Part shown: one piece after another, positions 2,420 through 41,286 of the stretch | How the letters are laid out: each line of letters begins with the position of its first letter | How positions within the stretch are numbered: the stretch's first letter is position 1 | Sequence record: ON470579.1 | Source of the DNA: Escherichia phage vB_EcoM-606R2 | Length of the DNA: 42,743 nucleotides | Strand: one strand, 5' to 3' | Notes under the pieces: model-generated | What the model was told of the DNA's origin: nothing | Seen by the model: the letters and a program-made list of their open reading frames with translations, nothing else | The model's database searches: none | Position numbers and translations under genes: made by a program

Positions 2420-2564
2420 AATTTATGGTGCAAAAAAATTTTGCATACGTTCAGCAACACAAAGAGCTCCCCTTTCTATAAAGGTTCATTTGAGACTCCC
2501 CCTTGACTCCCTCTTCGAAATTGAAGACCATTAACTGTACATAATTACAGTCCTGGATAATATT

Positions 2565-2831
2565 ATGCGCAGAAAAGAATCAAACGTTAGCAGTTTGCCG
2601 GAACTCACCAATTTTGAGGTAAGCTATTCCCTAGTTACCAATGAAGTTTACTTGTCTGCATCCTTCACTGATAACATGGCCTGTATACCAAACTGGCCCT
2701 TACAAGAATTTCCGGATCAACTAATATGCATTTCTCGAGCAAAAGCTATTGCCCTAATCGAAGAGCTCCAGAAGACCATCGACTATATGGACGCAGGAAT
2801 CGATCGACAATCAGGTAGCCTGCTCCAGTAG
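2565..2831 (+). CDS. hypothetical protein, AT-rich terminal cargo
   Basis: 88-aa ORF in an AT-rich region with a weak ribosome-binding site; no recognisable motif. Confidence 0.35.
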   Translation: MRRKESNVSSLPELTNFEVSYSLVTNEVYLSASFTDNMACIPNWPLQEFPDQLICISRAKAIALIEELQKTIDYMDAGIDRQSGSLLQ

Positions 2832-2964
2832 CTGGCGAGTTTTATACTCGTTCCCTGCAACAATGGGCTTTTGGTAAGGCACTCACAAATAAGGAATTCG
2901 TTAAGGCTTTTGTTCTGGAGACTCTGAAAGATACAAGGAATCAGTTGATGGCTGGTTTGATCAT

Positions 2965-3005
2965 ACTAATTAATATATTGTCAAACTCACAATATATTAA
3001 TTAGT
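2965..3005. repeat. perfect 16-bp inverted repeat (ACTAATTAATATATTG / CAATATATTAATTAGT) with 9-bp spacer
   Basis: Read directly from the sequence; lies between the 88-aa and 281-aa cargo ORFs. Candidate operator or AT-rich terminator hairpin. Confidence 0.8.
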
Positions 3006-3132
3006 GGTAGAACATAAAACCGAGTTCTTGACTTTCAATAGCTATTATATGCGATCAACAACCTTAACCATCTCCTTATATTTTATGAGATACTCAAACA
3101 ATTTAAATTTATGAGCAAAGGAAAATAATAAA

Positions 3133-3978
3133 GTGAATAAAAATCCCTGGGATATTCCAGCATGGCACGCTCTGGGCCGAGAAGCATCTTTAGTTACACA
3201 GCTCATTGGTTCTGGGGCAACAGCCATAGGTAAAGCCAATTATGCAGACAAAATAGGTGAATATTACACAGCATTTTTTGGGCTTTCTGTAGGTTTTGAG
3301 AGACTTGCTAAACTAATACTTGTTGCACACTATGCCATTGAACACAAAGGGAAAATGCCTGATGAGAATATTGTAAGAAAATTTGGACATAAGCTCATTG
3401 AATTAACCAACGAGGTTGATAGTATTTCTAAAAAAATGCAACTATCTCTGAGATATTCACGTCCTACACATAAAATTACCTACAAAATACTTGAATGTTT
3501 AGATTCCTTTGCTGATGCCCGACGGGGACGTTACGCAAATTTCTCCTCATTAAGCAGCCCCAATTTAACCAATAATGAACCTATTAATAAATGGTGGGGA
3601 GAAGTAGCCGAGAGTATCCTTGAAAAACATTATTATTATACAGTTGAACAAAGACGTGTTGAAGAAAATGCTAGGTTTATCAATGCCACTCTTTCACCGT
3701 ATACAACGGTCATGTATATGAATGAAAGTACCAACATTATGCAAGACCTTATATCAGCCTCCATCCGTACTGGACAAAATACCATTGTTCAAAAGTGGGG
3801 AAGATTCTATTCTCTTAGCATCGCTCGTTGGCTTGCCACAGTATTAGCAGAACTGTCTGATATAGCTTCTCATAAATATGGAATAATTAGTTTTTATGGC
3901 CTTAGTGAACATTGTTGCAGTTATATAGTTGAAGATAGTTTTTTAAAAAACAGAAAAATATGGCCACTTCGCCAATAG
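3133..3978 (+). CDS. hypothetical protein, AT-rich accessory gene at the prophage terminus
   Basis: 281-aa ORF with a GTG start 11 nt after AAGGA. Its composition is strongly AT-rich compared with the phage core. It sits next to the truncated invertase. Confidence 0.6.
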   Translation: MNKNPWDIPAWHALGREASLVTQLIGSGATAIGKANYADKIGEYYTAFFGLSVGFERLAKLILVAHYAIEHKGKMPDENIVRKFGHKLIELTNEVDSISKKMQLSLRYSRPTHKITYKILECLDSFADARRGRYANFSSLSSPNLTNNEPINKWWGEVAESILEKHYYYTVEQRRVEENARFINATLSPYTTVMYMNESTNIMQDLISASIRTGQNTIVQKWGRFYSLSIARWLATVLAELSDIASHKYGIISFYGLSEHCCSYIVEDSFLKNRKIWPLRQ

Positions 3979-3982
3979 TTAA

Positions 3983-4333
3983 CTAGAAAATCTGCATAAG
4001 GGGGAGAAATCCCCCACCTGTAATAACATAACTACTAAAATTAACACCTTGTTCGCACAACTCCTCCACCAGCACGACAAGATGCCGCACACTGCGCCCC
4101 AGCCGATCCAGCTTCCAGACAACCAGAGTGTCACCTGCCGATAATGTCCTGAGCAGTTTTTTCAGTCCCGGCCTTTCGGACTTTGTACCGCTTATCTTGT
4201 CTTCAAAAAACAGCTCGCATCCTGCACAGTTCAGCGCATTACGTTGTAGATCTGTGTTCTGGTCATTTGTTGACACACGTACATAGCCAATAAGCATAGT
4301 GGATCCCTCTGACAAAAGCAGGAATGATGCCAT
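3983..4333 (-). pseudogene. Hin/Gin/Pin-family serine DNA invertase, 3'-truncated
   Basis: The N-terminus MLIGYVRVSTNDQNTDLQRNAL...DRLGRS carries the serine-recombinase catalytic motif. The ORF is only 116 aa and ends in unrelated residues; the HTH DNA-binding domain is missing. Confidence 0.75.
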
Positions 4334-31931: not shown

Positions 31932-32052
31932 CCTTTACAGTCTGATAACTTACTTCTGATCAAACCGCTCTCCACAAGGGCGGTTTTCTTATTTGCAAAA
32001 TAATTCATTTTCGTATTGACGCAAAATCCCATAACGCATATAAATACGATAC

Positions 32053-32073
32053 CGCATAATTAATGCGTTTTTT
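32053..32073 (+). terminator. putative terminator downstream of the cI-like gene
   Basis: AT-rich hairpin CGCAT-AATTA-ATGCG followed by TTTTTT. Confidence 0.4.
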
Positions 32074-32306
32074 AATACCAGCTCTTTAACAAACTGAACC
32101 GCGTGACAGGTAAGCCGCAGTACTCCTGGCAAAATGAAATGGCACCCGATGGGATCGAGGTAAGCGCCGAGTCCGTATGCGTACGGTAAGCGTAGAGGAC
32201 AACACCGCGACGAACTGATAAGTCACGCAAGTTGAAACGCCCCGACGATGGGGCGCTTAGTTCCTTTAACTCTGGGTGGCCGGAAGGGTACCCATGCTTA
32301 AAGAAA

Positions 32307-32876
32307 TTACTGGTTGTAAGGATCGTAATCCGTGATTGCCTTCCCCGGATTTTCATCTTCAGCAGGCAGTCTGGCCTCTAAAGCATTTCGGTTGAACAGA
32401 TAGGAAGCCCTACAGTGCGAACAAACCATATTAACGGCTCGCCCAAGGCCTGGCTTAATAACCAGACCTTCCGCTTGCAATATAGATTTTCTCTTTTGCT
32501 CGTAGCAATTGGGACAAATATAAACCGGAGATTGGTCAGTATCTGCAGAAAGCTTGCTGCGATAGACCAGAGTACCCCGCATAGGCTGGTAAAGTTCATA
32601 GCTCGCCGCTTCAGCGGCCCAGTTCTCTTGCTTTACTTTCTCATTTTCCAGTTCAACAATTTTCTCCTTAGCCGCAATCAGCAGCTCCTGAAGCGACATT
32701 TGCTGCATCTGAACATCCATTAGCTTATCGAGTAAGGTGTGCGTCTTCTCTTTAACTGCATAGTCGACAGTCAGATTCTGAATCTCTCTTGCTGCTCCAA
32801 CCGCGCCTTTAATTGCTCCTCCCACGCCGGATAACGATTCAGTTATCCGGGAAAGAATTCCTTTTTCTTCAGACAT
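32307..32876 (-). CDS. hypothetical coiled-coil protein with C-terminal CxxC...CxxC zinc ribbon
   Basis: 189-aa ORF antisense to the flanking operons, with a helical N-terminus and CPNC...CSHC. Confidence 0.55.
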   Translation of the reverse strand: MSEEKGILSRITESLSGVGGAIKGAVGAAREIQNLTVDYAVKEKTHTLLDKLMDVQMQQMSLQELLIAAKEKIVELENEKVKQENWAAEAASYELYQPMRGTLVYRSKLSADTDQSPVYICPNCYEQKRKSILQAEGLVIKPGLGRAVNMVCSHCRASYLFNRNALEARLPAEDENPGKAITDYDPYNQ

Positions 32877-35468: not shown

Positions 35469-36017
35469 ATGAAACTGAAGCTGAACAATGTTCGTCTGGC
35501 CTTCCCGTCTCTGTTTGAAGCTAAAACTGTAAACGGCGAAGGCGATCCGCGTTTCTCCGCAGTATTTTTAATGTCTCCCAAACACCCACAACTGGAAGAA
35601 ATCCGTAAAGCTATGAAGCAGGTAGCGAAGGAAAAATGGGGAGAGAAGTGGGAGCCCATTTATAACCAGCTGGAGAAAAAACTCAATCTGTGCCTGCATG
35701 ATGGTGATGAAAAAGCAGAGTATGAAGGCTTCCCCGGCAATTTCTTCCTGAATGCTGCTAACAAAGCGCGCCCAGCTGTTCTTGATCGCGATCGTTCGCC
35801 ACTTATTCAGGCTGACGGACGTCCTTATGCAGGGTGCTATGTAAACGCCGTTATCGATATCTGGGCACAGGACAATAATTTCGGTAAACGCATTAATGCC
35901 TCACTCGGCGGAGTCCAGTTCCTGCGAGACGGCGATGCATTCGCTGGCGGCGGAGTGGCAAGCGCTGACGATTTCGACGATATCAGCGAAGGTGCTGATG
36001 CTGAAGCACTAATTTAA
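35469..36017 (+). CDS. phage replication-module protein (DUF2815-like, probable ssDNA-binding)
   Basis: 182-aa ORF with an acidic C-terminal tail (DDFDDISEGADAE) typical of SSB-like proteins, following the nuclease. Confidence 0.5.
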   Translation: MKLKLNNVRLAFPSLFEAKTVNGEGDPRFSAVFLMSPKHPQLEEIRKAMKQVAKEKWGEKWEPIYNQLEKKLNLCLHDGDEKAEYEGFPGNFFLNAANKARPAVLDRDRSPLIQADGRPYAGCYVNAVIDIWAQDNNFGKRINASLGGVQFLRDGDAFAGGGVASADDFDDISEGADAEALI

Positions 36018-36038
36018 CCCTACTTCATAGACGCCCGG

Positions 36039-36057
36039 TTAAACACCGGGCTACTGA
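36039..36057. other. GC-rich stem-loop between convergent genes
   Basis: Inverted repeat GCCCGGT-TAAACA-CCGGGC; there is no clear U-tract on either strand. Confidence 0.4.
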
Positions 36058-36069
36058 TTAGGCGTATAA

Positions 36070-36699
36070 TCACTCAGGAATCTTAATCTTTCTCAATTCT
36101 TTATTTAGTTCACAGATCTTTTTCTTAGACGGGAAAGTATCATACATCCAAAAACCAACAGTCTCTAAAACTATTATCATAACCATATACACAAGATAAT
36201 TTAAAAGGCCTTCATTTTGCCCTATGGAAATAATGCAGATAATAGAAAAAAGGGTAAACAGCACAAAACACAGAAAGGAAAACAGACGACTAATAATAAA
36301 TAAAAAACCTGAAAAATCAACATTAATAAAAAACACTCCGTTATCTTTCTCTATATAATTCTGAAGCTTAATCAACTGATTTATATACTGTCTTTTTTCT
36401 AATCTATTGCAAATGTAAATAACATCTCTTCGGTTATAAGAGGATTGCAATTTCAGCGCATCACGAATAATTTTATCATTTATTCTTTTTTCTATGGCTT
36501 TCTTATCCTCCTTATCCAGATAACGTTCATACTTAATTAAATATAAAATTAACTTCTTGACATATTTAGGCTCTTTATACTTATAATTAAAAATGATCTT
36601 TCTTATCCAGACTCCCATAACAATCAAACATGAAAAAATATATCCAGCTATTTTCTCCAGATGCTCTGTATGGTCAATCAAGTATTGGATCATATGCAT
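36070..36699 (-). CDS. AT-rich integral membrane protein, antisense insertion in the replication module
   Basis: 209-aa ORF with one N-terminal and two or three C-terminal hydrophobic helices and a Lys/Tyr/Ile-rich composition; its GC content is markedly lower than the flanking genes. Confidence 0.6.
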   Translation of the reverse strand: MHMIQYLIDHTEHLEKIAGYIFSCLIVMGVWIRKIIFNYKYKEPKYVKKLILYLIKYERYLDKEDKKAIEKRINDKIIRDALKLQSSYNRRDVIYICNRLEKRQYINQLIKLQNYIEKDNGVFFINVDFSGFLFIISRLFSFLCFVLFTLFSIICIISIGQNEGLLNYLVYMVMIIVLETVGFWMYDTFPSKKKICELNKELRKIKIPE

Positions 36700-36745
36700 A
36701 ATTAATCTTTTAATCAGTTAATAGAATAAAAACCTAGGTAAACAC

Positions 36746-38809
36746 ATGTCCAATATACTATGGGGCGACCTGGAAACCTATTGCGAAATCCCTATTACGA
36801 ACGGTACCCATGCGTATGCCGAAGGCGTTGAAGTGATGCTTTTCGCATGGGCTATCAACGACGGGCCAGTAAACGTGTGGGATATCACTGCCGGTGGTGG
36901 TATTCCACACGGCTTATACGAAGCAATCGCAGACCCTGAAACCCTGCTTTATTTCCATAACTCTCACTTCGACCGCACCGTTCTGCGTTATGCAATGCCG
37001 CGACTGGCACCGCCAGTCGAACGTTGGCGCGACACGATGGTGCAGGCGCTGGCGCACGGTCTCCCGGGGTCTCTGGGGGAACTCTGCGAAGTACTAGGCG
37101 TCCCGCAAGACAAAGCGAAGGACAAAGAAGGTAAAGCGCTGATCCAGCTGTTCTGTAAGCCACGTCCGAAAAACAGCAAACTGCGTCGGGCCACCAGTAA
37201 AACCCATCCGGAAGAATGGCGGCGCTTTGTTGCTTACGCCGGACTGGATATCGAAGCAATGCGTGAAGTCTATAAACGTCTGCCGAAGTGGAATTATCAG
37301 GGGACAGAGCTGGCGCTCTGGCATCGTGATCAGCAGATCAACGACCGGGGCGTCTGCATGGACATGCAACTCGCGCGCGCTGCGATCGAAGCGGTAGACC
37401 AGGAGCAAAAGCGCCTGGCAAAGCGTACACAGGAAATGACTGATGGCGAAGTGCAGGCAGCCACACAACGGGACGCGTTGATTAAGCACATCGTTGAATC
37501 CTACGGTGTGGAGCTACCAGACATGCAACGCAGTACCCTGGAACGTCGTATGGCCGACCCCGATTTATCATCTGCCGTGAAAGAACTGCTGGCTATCCGC
37601 CTGCAAGCCAGTACTACCAGCACCAGTAAATACAAGGCACTGATGAAAGGCGTAAGCCACGACGGGCGCTTACGCGGTACGCTACAGTTCTGCGGGGCGT
37701 CACGTACCGGTCGTTGGGCCGGACGGCTATTCCAGCCCCAGAACCTTCCCCGCCCTTCACTAAAACAGGAACAAATAGACGAAGGCATCGAAGCACTGAA
37801 AGCCGGATGTGCAGACCTGCTGTTTGACAATATCATGGAACTAACCAGTTCAGCGTTACGTGGCTGCATTATCGCGCCAACAGGCAAAAAACTAGTGGTA
37901 AGTGACTTGTCAAACATTGAAGGCCGTATGCTGGCATGGCTGGCGGGAGAAGAATGGAAACTGAATGCATTCAGAGAGTATGACGCTGGAACGGGTCCGG
38001 ACTTATATAAACTGGCGTATGCAAAAGCTTTCGATATTGCACCAGATGATGTTGATAAACACATGCGTCAGATCGGTAAAGTCATGGAACTCGGTCTGGG
38101 TTATGGAGGTGGTGTATCGGCTTTCATCACTTTTGCTCTGGTTTACGGTCTCGATCTCGACGAGCTGGCGAACGCCGCACTGCCAAACATTCCCCGCGAT
38201 GTTATCCGCGAGGCAAAAAGCTGGTACGACGAATCGGTTAAGCGTAAGTCGACCTTTGGCCTGTCCGAGCGTGTATTCATCGCATGTGACTCGCTCAAGC
38301 GCCTGTGGCGCAGGGCGCACCCGGCGACCTGCGATTTCTGGTACGAGCTGGAGCGCACTGTCCGCACAGCAATCGCCACACCGCAAAAAACATTGTATTG
38401 CGGCTATCTTAAAATCCGACGTGATGGCGCGTGGCTGCGCATACAGCTACCATCCGGACGCGCTGTATGCTACCCGTCTCCGGTTATCGAACAAGGGAAT
38501 ATCACCTACATGGGTGTTAACTCTTATTCGCGTAAATGGCAACGACTCAAAACCTACGGCGGAAAGCTGGTGGAGAACGTCACCCAGGCGGCCGCCCGCG
38601 ACGTTCTAGCCAGAAACATGCCGCTGATCGAGGGTGCCGGTTACAGCATTGTGCTAACGGTACACGACGAGGTGATCACCGAAGCACCAGACACAGAAGA
38701 TTTCAACGATAAAGCGCTTTCCGCGCTTCTCTCCACTAACCCCGAATGGGCACCCGATATTCCGCTGAACGCTGGCGGCTTTGAGGCGTACCACTACAAA
38801 AAAGATTGA
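36746..38809 (+). CDS. DNA polymerase, family A, with 3'-5' exonuclease domain
   Basis: Exonuclease motif GDLET; polymerase motif A ([13 protein letters not shown]), motif B ([15 protein letters not shown]) and motif C (VHDE). Confidence 0.85.
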
Positions 38810-38873: not shown

Positions 38874-39635
38874 ATGCAGGAACTAACTGAAATGCCGATC
38901 AACTATCCATACCCGAGAGAATCTTTTCCTGACTTTTTGAGGGAGTGTGGGTTCACCAATTTTTCCCACGAACAGCGTGAGACTTATGACTGCTATCGTT
39001 TAACGAATGGCGTAATTGTTAACCTTTACACCACCCGGACCATTCAGTTTCAAGGGAACCCTCAAGAACGTCCCAATGTTGAAACTGCAATAATGTCCCA
39101 TTTAGGAACGCCCCCCACGGCAACACCACTAGCCGTAGAACAGCCATCTGAGCTTCCCAAAAAGATATTCATTGTTCACGGCCATGACCATACTGCAAAG
39201 GAACAACTTGAGCTAATCCTTCATAAACTTGGATTACCAGACCATTTCATTTTGCAGAATACGGGAGGGACTGGACTCACCATTATTGAAGAGCTTGAAC
39301 GTGAAATTGGGCAAGGACAAACTGCTACTCGTTTCGGGATTGTTCTTTTGACACCTGATGATATGGGATACTCAAAGCGCGCCGGTGAAGCAGAAATCCA
39401 ACCCCGCGCAAGACAGAACGTTGTACTCGAGATGGGTATGCTTCTTTCGTCCTTAGGGCGCAGCAATGTAGCAATCCTTCAGAAACAGCACCTAGAACAG
39501 CCTTCTGATGCTAACGGGATTTTGTATCTGAATTTCAACGACCATGTACGTGAAACAGTTCCTCGTCTAGTGCAACGGTTACAAAATTCTGGTTTCGAAT
39601 TTACACAAGCTCAAATAGCTAACGCTTCCTCGTAA
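38874..39635 (+). CDS. TIR-like domain protein (COG4271 / Cap12-type TIR-like fold) with an unknown N-terminal domain
   Basis: The C-terminal region has the pattern KIFIVHGHD ... FGIVLLTPDD ... RARQNVVLEMGMLL ... PSD, recalled as typical of the TIR-like nucleotide-binding family. Not confirmed by search. Confidence 0.55.
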   Translation: MQELTEMPINYPYPRESFPDFLRECGFTNFSHEQRETYDCYRLTNGVIVNLYTTRTIQFQGNPQERPNVETAIMSHLGTPPTATPLAVEQPSELPKKIFIVHGHDHTAKEQLELILHKLGLPDHFILQNTGGTGLTIIEELEREIGQGQTATRFGIVLLTPDDMGYSKRAGEAEIQPRARQNVVLEMGMLLSSLGRSNVAILQKQHLEQPSDANGILYLNFNDHVRETVPRLVQRLQNSGFEFTQAQIANASS

Positions 39636-40364: not shown

Positions 40365-40856
40365 ATGGCTAAGCAACAAACGAAAGAAATAAACCAAGAT
40401 GATGTAAAAGACAACAAAAATATGCCACCTCATATATGCGGCATTATTATGCCAATTGCGGACATAGAAGGTTATCCCACTGGACATTGGAGAAATGTTC
40501 ATGACATTATTTGTGAAGCATCAAATGATGCCGGATTCAAGGCAAATTTGGTAAGTTCAGATGATGATGTTGCAGTAATACAAAAACGAATTGTTCAAAA
40601 TCTTTATGAAAACCCCATAGTTGTTTGCGATATAAGTGCTCGAAACGCTAATGTAATGTTTGAATTAGGAATGCGTCTCGCATTTGACAAACCGACCGTA
40701 ATTATTAAGGACGAGCGCACTCCTTATAGCTTTGACATTTCATCAATTGAACATTTAGAGTACCCTTCGGATTTAAGATACCAATCAATCAATCAATTTA
40801 TTCAAAGAAAGACTTGCGAGCAAGATAAAAGAAACATATTTAAAGTCAGTAACTGA
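40365..40856 (+). CDS. TIR-like domain protein, N-terminal portion of a frameshift-split gene
   Basis: AT-rich ORF with the pattern PIVVCDISARNANVMFELGMRLAFDKPTVII ... PSD, parallel to the upstream TIR-like protein. The frame ends 19 codons after a (CAAT)4 tract. Confidence 0.55.
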   Translation: MAKQQTKEINQDDVKDNKNMPPHICGIIMPIADIEGYPTGHWRNVHDIICEASNDAGFKANLVSSDDDVAVIQKRIVQNLYENPIVVCDISARNANVMFELGMRLAFDKPTVIIKDERTPYSFDISSIEHLEYPSDLRYQSINQFIQRKTCEQDKRNIFKVSN

Positions 40857-41286
40857 TCCTGAATACACAACATTCCTCAAACATTTTGGCACTTTCAAAG
40901 TTGCACAACTAGACCAGAAAGAAGTATCAGAAACTGAGTATCTGGCATCTGAGATTAAAGATATCAAATCATTATTGATATCTCTTAGGGCAACAGCAAC
41001 GACAAAATCCAGATTTTTCGACTCACCGAAAAATTACTCGCAGCAGGAAATTGACAACTCTGTAGATATTATTAAAAATGGAGTTGCCAGTTATACTATA
41101 AGGAGTGAAGGATTTAGTATATCAAAATCAGCACTAGAAAAGTTACGCCAAAGACTACACAACGCAGGATTTCAAGTCGAGCAAATAGTATTGACAGGAA
41201 AAGAAGTAATTATTCATCTGTCATCACCTTTAATAAATGAAGAAGAAAATATTTTTAAAGATGCAATAGTAACAGCACTATTATAA
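40777..41286 (+). CDS. C-terminal portion of the frameshift-split gene (no ATG; open from 40777)
   Basis: A 170-codon open frame with protein-like composition. The track starts it at a TTG at 40975, but it reads continuously from the repeat tract. Confidence 0.5.
   Translation, partial: DTNQSINLFKERLASKIKETYLKSVTDPEYTTFLKHFGTFKVAQLDQKEVSETEYLASEIKDIKSLLISLRATATTKSRFFDSPKNYSQQEIDNSVDIIKNGVASYTIRSEGFSISKSALEKLRQRLHNAGFQVEQIVLTGKEVIIHLSSPLINEEENIFKDAIVTALL
40782..40797 (+). repeat. tetranucleotide repeat (CAAT)4 at the frame-switch point
   Basis: Read directly from the sequence. The +1 frame opens at 40777 and the zero frame closes at 40856. Confidence 0.9.

Follow-up and report, generated by a model that had tools for sequence, protein, structure and literature searches.

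Why does a membrane protein gene lie within the replication operon of a temperate phage, on the strand opposite to its neighbours, and what might its product do? The question is raised by positions 36018..36745 of the sequence of Escherichia phage vB_EcoM-606R2 (ON470579.1; 42,743 nucleotides, all of which were analysed and are hereafter called the window), where an open reading frame (ORF) for a protein of 209 amino acids (aa) is enclosed by the genes for a DUF2815 / Enc34-type single-stranded DNA-binding protein and a family A DNA polymerase (PolA). We show that this interval is an accessory cassette, exchanged horizontally, that fills a variable slot of the prophage early (replication) operon. 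We also show that the encoded protein is a member of a rare and uncharacterised family, AT-rich in every case, whose genes move from one cargo slot to another in unrelated temperate phages, an integrative and conjugative element (ICE) and genomic islands. We then weigh what the protein may do for the element that carries it.

An exchangeable cassette between DUF2815 and PolA

The ORF runs from an ATG to a TGA on the minus strand and is held in a gap that extends exactly from the DUF2815 stop codon (36017) to the PolA ATG (36746). GC content is 0.287 in the ORF and 0.298 in the cassette, compared with 0.492 for the whole window; the neighbouring genes have values of 0.492 (DUF2815) and 0.541 (PolA), and the flanks together 0.498. 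These coordinates and GC values, together with the Pfam matches of the flanking genes, confirm the first-pass annotation in its description of an AT-rich gene for a 209-aa membrane protein lying antisense between a DUF2815-like gene and the polymerase. The product is named 'hypothetical protein' in both GenBank and RefSeq, and literature searches with the phage name, the protein accessions and the PHROG identifier found no papers. A second record, ON470588 (Escherichia phage vB_EcoM-611R5, a temperate myovirus-type prophage), is 100% identical to the window over 5 kb. Since the host genes tadA, pgpC/yfhB and yfhH occupy window positions 1 to about 2300 (the reverse of ON470588 40486..42739), the sequence represents a prophage with chromosomal flank and not a packaged genome end.

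We then examined how the locus varies among relatives, using a 2.2-kb query made up of DUF2815, the insert and the start of PolA against 5426 complete E. coli genomes. The query matched in 159 genomes, mostly at 95-100% identity, and the membrane-gene insert was present in 67 of them. In junction alignments, five E. coli prophage relatives were about 98% identical on both sides, as far as the DUF2815 TAA on the left and from the PolA ATG onwards on the right, with unalignable sequence between. Because similarity ends at the one codon and restarts at the other, 36018..36745 corresponds to exactly one exchangeable cassette. Alternative contents of the slot were Nmad5 with a reverse-strand 89-aa protein bearing two transmembrane (TM) segments, Nmad5 with a reverse-strand 229-aa soluble protein, a BRO-N gene, and a reverse-strand 199-aa protein. 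Membrane proteins make up three of the four reverse-strand alternatives when the window's own gene is counted. The membrane gene lies outside the replication module, and its status as an accessory insertion is demonstrated. An insertion without a role in replication had been proposed earlier, to be abandoned if relatives kept the gene as a conserved part of their replication module; it is not conserved there (67 of 159 flank-bearing genomes), and unrelated cargo takes its place in others. Literature searches for the DUF2815-PolA slot found no description.

The 199-aa protein (E. coli 13E0725; 13 genomes) is a divergent homologue, 19% identical to the 209-aa protein, with the same three-TM layout and a similar C-terminal tail (FPGREVINKYNLQLLKV). 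Aligned by hhalign to a family profile built without it, it reached a probability of 96.5% (E 7e-10, 189 columns). Two three-TM control proteins, P22 SieA and TolQ, scored 0.2% and 0.08% against the same profile, so the score of the 13E0725 protein does not come from membrane-protein composition alone. Two very divergent alleles of one family occupy the same slot on the same strand, in a backbone that is about 98% identical.

The cassette has a stop-free run of 215 codons; when its bases were shuffled 5000 times, such runs averaged 62 codons and never exceeded 140. The ORF is unbroken in all five E. coli copies compared, which differ by at most 13 substitutions, and full-length homologues with common motifs share 23-43% identity with the 209-aa protein. 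From the length of the run, the homologues and the unbroken copies, we conclude that the ORF did not arise by chance. Among the five copies, the more divergent pairs have a ratio of nonsynonymous to synonymous polymorphism (pN/pS) of about 0.3-0.4, which, with at most 13 substitutions, is weak evidence. The ribosome-binding site of the ORF is weak. In enterotoxigenic E. coli H10407 (locus L021, 1446..2211), the prophage PolA is annotated as frameshifted and the neighbouring membrane ORF is unbroken, a case which hints that the cargo gene outlasts phage functions.

A rare family and its predicted architecture

An exhaustive phmmer search of 1.84 billion representative proteins returned 10 with E <=0.001, and a word-indexed search added a Xenorhabdus subgroup to the family. 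The only matches in the phage collection were the two vB_EcoM records, and tblastn against the plasmid collection gave no matches to the membrane protein. In the window and, without exception, in the 10 other contexts compared for base composition, the family gene has a GC content of 28-40% versus 42-55% for its flanks, and in the roughly ten contexts compared no gene was a conserved neighbour of family members.

These contexts belong to several kinds of element. In P2-like prophages of Rahnella and of an Enterobacterales metagenome-assembled genome, the homologue occupies the P2 orf30 locus between tail genes S and V, one of the three places where P2-like phages carry horizontally acquired genes (PMC3091744; PMC6823313). 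Four IMG/VR contigs with a homologue are probably P2-like prophages as well, judged from 38% identity. In a lambdoid prophage the homologue sits just upstream of Q and adjoins a dGTPase defence gene (PADLOC E 5.5e-144) and a GAPS4-like gene. Others lie antisense, either flanked by RecT and a PAPS-reductase-like (SspD/DndC-like) gene or adjoining a DUF1367 gene near an integrase. Further homologues are found in an integrase-bounded island of Serratia directly adjoining a Septu-like PtuA/PtuB pair (PtuA E 8e-31), on a conjugative element (ICE), and in a phage/Tn3 remnant of Xenorhabdus. On the Xenorhabdus indica chromosome the gene has a lytic transglycosylase gene on one side and thrS-infC-rpmI-rplT on the other, and its surroundings contain no phage genes. 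Several Xenorhabdus species are on record as carrying members of this subgroup, and the one such locus examined suggests that a once-mobile gene has been retained vertically. Like the orf30, Z/fun and TO cargo hotspots of P2, the DUF2815-PolA slot is a fixed position between conserved genes that holds alternative, horizontally acquired genes; unlike them, it belongs to another type of phage and is set within an early replication operon. Cargo at P2/P4 hotspots is often defensive.

We next sought to describe the protein itself. Hydropathy identified three membrane segments (TM1, about residues 17-37; TM2, from about 128 or 132 to 160; TM3, from about 165 to 186 or 188), the last two joined by a loop of 4-6 residues. 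An AlphaFold2 (AF2) model built on a 15-sequence family alignment placed the same three long helices (mean predicted local distance difference test score, pLDDT, 75; predicted TM-score, pTM, 0.58) and formed the C-terminal tail as a short helix, while a model from the single sequence (pLDDT 53) was too poor for use. The earlier description of a multi-pass protein holds in that membrane segments are found by both methods, and is made more precise here as three helices. Residues 1-16, ahead of TM1, are acidic with a conserved H-x-E and are probably periplasmic. The segment of about 90 residues that follows TM1 is predicted to be cytoplasmic because it is rich in lysine and arginine (24 K+R versus 13 D+E in the loop of residues 33-130). 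With the basic C-terminal tail, this loop gives a predicted N-out/C-in topology, the outcome of the topology prediction that the first-pass annotation had proposed as a check.

Conservation is concentrated on the predicted cytoplasmic face. The best-conserved part of the protein is the domain of residues 38-127, with the motifs YLxKYxxYLSxxDKxYIKxxINxEIMR and NRxxLIYI, and the most conserved motif of the family, FPxxxxIxxINxELxKxKxP, lies in the 21-residue tail, where N199 and L202 are invariant. R138 is found at the cytoplasmic edge of TM2, and E179, a membrane-embedded glutamate, is kept in 7 of 10 family members. The protein matches phrog_10579, which has no functional annotation, at E 7e-107 over residues 28-209 only. 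Because the N-terminal 27 residues, TM1 included, are conserved among homologues, the 209-aa start is the better one, and members of phrog_10579 are probably annotated too short.

No likeness to characterised proteins was detected in these searches. PADLOC-DB v2.0.0 contained no family at E <=1 for the 209-aa protein and none for the 13E0725 allele; Pfam gave no match for the 15 family members, SieA (PF26849, E <=5) and MotA_ExbB included; a sequence search of the PDB found nothing below E 2; and PDB and viral fold searches found no significant match. A Rex (winged-helix) profile matched the cytoplasmic domain at E 0.0015 in the query and its 98% twin only. As this match is absent from divergent members, we treat it as a composition artefact, and a winged-helix or Rex-like fold, which the order of helices and beta-hairpin in the model had prompted us to consider, is not supported. 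The features of the locus and of the related loci are collected in Table 1.

Table 1. Features of the cassette, its flanks and its product in the window, and of related loci (locus named where the positions are not those of the window).
Feature	Position	Strand	Basis or remark
Variable cargo cassette, whole gap from DUF2815 stop to PolA start	36018..36745	.	relatives alignable only outside the gap; GC 0.298
Coding sequence, 209-aa three-helix inner-membrane protein (predicted)	36070..36699	-	WP_000551014.1 / URC09083.1; PHROG phrog_10579
Left conserved flank, DUF2815 / Enc34-type ssDNA-binding protein gene	35469..36017	+	Pfam Enc34_ssDNA-bd/DUF2815 E 7.6e-44
Right conserved flank, family A DNA polymerase gene (PolA)	36746..38809	+	Pfam DNA_pol_A E 2.4e-14
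TM1, aa 17-37	36589..36651	-	hydropathy; AF2 helix 11-37; conservation
Helical domain, predicted cytoplasmic, aa 38-127	36319..36588	-	AF2 (four helices and a beta-hairpin); conservation; charge
TM2-TM3 hairpin, aa 132-160 and 165-188	36136..36306	-	hydropathy; AF2; conservation
Basic C-terminal tail, predicted cytoplasmic, aa 189-209	36073..36135	-	conservation; charge
Candidate promoter, weak sigma-70-like site (TGGACA, 18 nt, TATTCT) upstream of the ORF, overlapping the PolA start codon	36723..36752	-	9/12 score
GC-rich 7-bp hairpin between the convergent DUF2815 and membrane genes	36033..36051	.	fold -18.5 to -20.7 kcal/mol; z -2.6 to -3.7
199-aa divergent homologue, same slot (E. coli 13E0725)	L003 2244..2843	-	13 genomes
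89-aa two-TM protein, same slot	L004 2976..3245	-	beside Nmad5
229-aa soluble protein, same slot	L005 2904..3593	-	beside Nmad5
BRO-N protein, same slot	L006 2926..3828	+	
Homologue on the Xenorhabdus indica chromosome	L008 8001..8639		between lytic transglycosylase gene and thrS-infC-rpmI-rplT

Possible roles of the membrane protein

The plus-strand early operon follows the repressor gene and is presumably silent in the lysogen; the minus-strand membrane gene would therefore be free of opposing transcription only in the lysogen, where, by analogy with sieA, it is probably expressed from the prophage. The candidate promoter upstream of the ORF is one of 5 sigma-70-like sites in the region versus 3.8 +/- 1.9 expected, a count not above chance. 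Neither strand of the hairpin downstream of the gene has a U-run, which sets it apart from a canonical intrinsic terminator, and no terminator was called there.

The exclusion or abortive-infection function raised in the first-pass annotation is plausible. A solitary membrane protein that is AT-rich in every host, with homologues in cargo slots or near defence systems, is consistent with a role in exclusion or defence, and we lean towards a protective role of some kind against phages or other mobile genetic elements, at slightly better than an even chance. Within that, the single most likely mechanism, which we put forward tentatively and at short of even chances, is a block of genome entry at the inner membrane of the kind exerted by SieA, gp15 or Imm. 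The membrane gene, pointing against the repressed early operon, would be transcribed in the lysogen, and its product would sit at the inner membrane and protect the lysogen from incoming phages. Genome entry would be blocked at that membrane, as with P22 SieA, HK97 gp15 or T4 Imm, and the conserved cytoplasmic face and C-terminal tail would interfere with the channel or conduit built by the invading phage.

The closest parallel is P22 SieA, an inner-membrane protein of 164 aa with three TM helices and a conserved cytoplasmic C-terminal motif, encoded on the strand opposite gene 16 and occurring in allelic types about 25% identical at one locus (PMC10883804). Like SieA (phrog_7745), the 209-aa protein is a small, solitary prophage protein, predicted to reside in the inner membrane, with three TM segments by hydropathy and AF2, a TM2-TM3 hairpin, a K/R/E-rich, predicted cytoplasmic helical segment after TM1, and a basic tail whose top-conserved motif directly follows TM3; it too is encoded opposite a neighbouring gene and has allelic types about 20-25% identical at one locus. 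Unlike SieA, it has the tail motif FPxxxxIxxINxELxK in place of FxRYPxEAxxFNK and a predicted cytoplasmic domain about 40 aa longer, and its gene does not lie between the ejection-protein gene 16 and the tailspike gene 9, is not confined to P22-like phages and occurs outside phages too. Homology to SieA was rejected (hhalign 0.2% with both a single sequence and a 9-sequence SieA profile; no PF26849 match in the 15 members). The protein may work like SieA without belonging to the SieA family. This SieA-like architecture and the pattern of divergent alleles favour an entry block, and we also count towards it the accessory status of the gene, its unbroken ORF in H10407, the pN/pS estimates, and the lack in the family of an enzymatic domain (Pfam) and of a conserved partner gene. 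HK97 gp15 and T4 Imm are moron-encoded or early inner-membrane proteins that block phage DNA entry. They resemble the 209-aa protein in kind, as small membrane proteins encoded by an optional extra gene in a conserved phage module; unlike it they are much shorter and lack a 90-aa cytoplasmic domain, and no Pfam or PHROG cross-match links them to it.

Several observations weigh against an entry block. Each classical superinfection-exclusion (Sie) protein keeps to a single phage type and a single locus; the present family spans several unrelated phage types, an ICE and the Xenorhabdus chromosome near thrS, and such a spread across unrelated element types fits a generic effector better than a lock-and-key block of entry. 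Almost none of the protein is predicted to be exposed to the periplasm, and the comparisons with PADLOC, Pfam, the SieA profile, the PDB and viral folds found no sequence or fold likeness to characterised exclusion or defence proteins. The promoter-like site scores weakly, in a region no richer in such sites than chance predicts; the downstream hairpin lacks a U-run; and the pN/pS estimates rest on at most 13 substitutions.

The strongest of the alternatives, which we nonetheless consider unlikely, is an abortive-infection sensor-effector, in which the cytoplasmic domain would sense a phage cue and the TM2-TM3 hairpin would oligomerise into a pore or ion leak, so that the infected cell is depolarised and killed before progeny are made. 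Lambda RexB and the SieB proteins of P22 and lambda are membrane components of abortive infection that are encoded by prophages, expressed in the lysogen and act through the membrane. Unlike RexB, which needs RexA, the membrane gene has no conserved partner, and there is no Pfam or PADLOC match. The independence of the family from any one type of element (unrelated phages, an ICE, islands, a chromosome) and the adjoining Septu-like and dGTPase defence genes favour such an effector somewhat, and it would also suit the placement of the most conserved polar residues in the cytoplasmic domain and tail and of a membrane-embedded glutamate in 7 of 10 members. Against it, no PADLOC effector or abortive-infection model resembles the protein, the glutamate is absent from the 13E0725 allele and from P0010, and no fold could be assigned to the cytoplasmic domain.

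Lysogenic conversion unrelated to defence appears to us distinctly unlikely; here the protein might give the host an advantage in a particular niche by changing its envelope physiology, its tolerance of stress or colicins, or how active one of its membrane complexes is. Such a function would accommodate the Xenorhabdus chromosomal gene between a lytic transglycosylase gene and thrS (one locus examined), as well as the unbroken ORF in the decaying prophage of H10407, and nothing links the protein mechanistically to phages. It sits poorly with the repeated presence of the gene in phage cargo hotspots and beside defence systems, and it is arms-race genes that more typically have such divergent alleles at a single slot.

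A function in the lytic cycle, such as membrane anchoring of replication, lysis timing or the exclusion of other phages during lytic growth, is improbable. The gene does lie inside a replication operon, and its P2-like homologue is co-directional with the late genes. However, it is missing from more than half of near-identical prophages, which have unrelated genes in its place, transcription of the early operon in lytic growth would run against its antisense orientation, and homologues occur at unrelated positions and outside phages; a weak match to a holin PHROG (E 0.37) is noise.

We also compared the protein with the stators TolQ, ExbB, MotA and ZorA, which it resembles in having three TM segments, a similar length, a large TM1-TM2 cytoplasmic loop (by prediction) and an acidic residue in TM3; TolQ and ExbB carry a glutamate in TM3. 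A stator decoy that competes with or inserts into Tol-Pal or TonB-ExbBD, blocking the phages and colicins that need them, is very improbable. TolQ is close in size and topology (230 versus 209 aa; TM1, a cytoplasmic loop of about 100 aa, a TM2-TM3 hairpin and a cytoplasmic tail), both proteins have the TM3 glutamate and a P...N motif after TM3, and ZorA and ExbB are among the non-significant Foldseek matches. Those matches have E values of 3-9 and TM-scores of 0.18-0.31, and homology to TolQ/ExbB stators was rejected (hhalign 0.08% against E. coli TolQ; no MotA_ExbB match in the 15 members). Unlike stator genes, family members have no TolR/ExbD/MotB/ZorB-type partner beside them in the contexts examined.

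Finally, a decaying or non-functional ORF in AT-rich junk DNA, for which the lack of a known domain, the weak ribosome-binding site and the weak promoter evidence could be cited, is effectively refuted by conservation: the 215-codon frame exceeds the shuffle maximum of 140, full-length homologues with conserved motifs occur in several genera, the ORF is unbroken in every copy examined, and the AF2 model reaches a pLDDT of 75 with the 15-sequence alignment.

Returning to protection of the lysogen, a more far-reaching formulation is possible, though we regard it as doubtful. The 209-aa protein would be the founding member of a new family of inner-membrane immunity determinants that consist of one protein each, have no sequence relation to SieA, SieB, Imm and RexB, and pass as a cassette between cargo slots in at least four unrelated types of temperate phage and in defence islands. 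They would act through the TM2-TM3 hairpin and its buried glutamate, by leaking ions once infection triggers them or by serving as a decoy of the TolQ/ExbB type that puts energised phage entry routes out of action, and the DUF2815-PolA junction would form, with the PolA-ANR junction and its TIR gene (below), a previously undescribed pair of defence hotspots in the replication operon. More soberly, the family is new and rare and the element is of a well-known kind, a prophage moron for a membrane protein, which is ordinary and would not surprise a specialist. Even so, having allelic variants in nature, it is a good and compact candidate in the search for a new membrane-level anti-phage protein. 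If the lysogen is indeed protected, a new and very rare family would join the short list of membrane-level exclusion and defence proteins, as a compact system of one 630-bp gene whose 19%-identical natural alleles in a 98%-identical prophage backbone provide ready-made material for mapping specificity. Without a protective role, it would be one more uncharacterised prophage moron.

A TIR gene and other possible cargo

A second slot was recognised downstream of PolA. Window positions 38874..39635 (+) encode a 253-aa TIR-domain protein (Pfam CAP12/Pycsar TIR, E 2.9e-31) that matches the PADLOC candidate single-gene system PDC-S35 at E 1.2e-108; a literature search for PDC-S35 found no papers. 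The TIR gene is inserted between PolA and a frameshifted gene for an ANR-family regulator, and because the ANR gene follows PolA by 5 bp in the alternative-cargo relatives examined, PolA-ANR is a second cargo slot. These relatives carry neither the TIR gene nor the membrane gene. A two-gene system of the TIR and membrane genes was considered and rejected: among complete E. coli genomes the TIR gene is present in 37 and the membrane gene in 67, each is found without the other, and HY220605 has the TIR gene only. The TIR gene is an independent cassette and not a partner of the membrane gene. The DUF2815-PolA and PolA-ANR junctions of this common E. coli prophage lineage are cargo slots that could be mined for accessory genes.

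Rfam and tRNA scans of the whole window gave no matches. Three further regions of the window drew our attention. Two reverse-strand genes, at about 32307..32876 (-; 189 aa) and about 31989..32132 (-; 47 aa), separate the repressor gene from the start of the early operon, the position of rexAB in lambda; neither protein has a Pfam or PADLOC match. Next to the DNA invertase and tail-fibre genes, a low-GC patch (0.35-0.40) at 2500..4000 encodes hypothetical proteins of 281 and 88 aa, for which Pfam and PADLOC likewise gave no match. Lastly, a patch with a GC content of 0.35-0.38 between the VRR-NUC nuclease and SNF2 helicase genes, at about 40365..41282 (+), encodes a 305-aa hypothetical protein with no Pfam match and a weak PADLOC match to the CBASS 'Effector TIR' model (E 1.1e-6), and may be a third cargo gene of the same operon.

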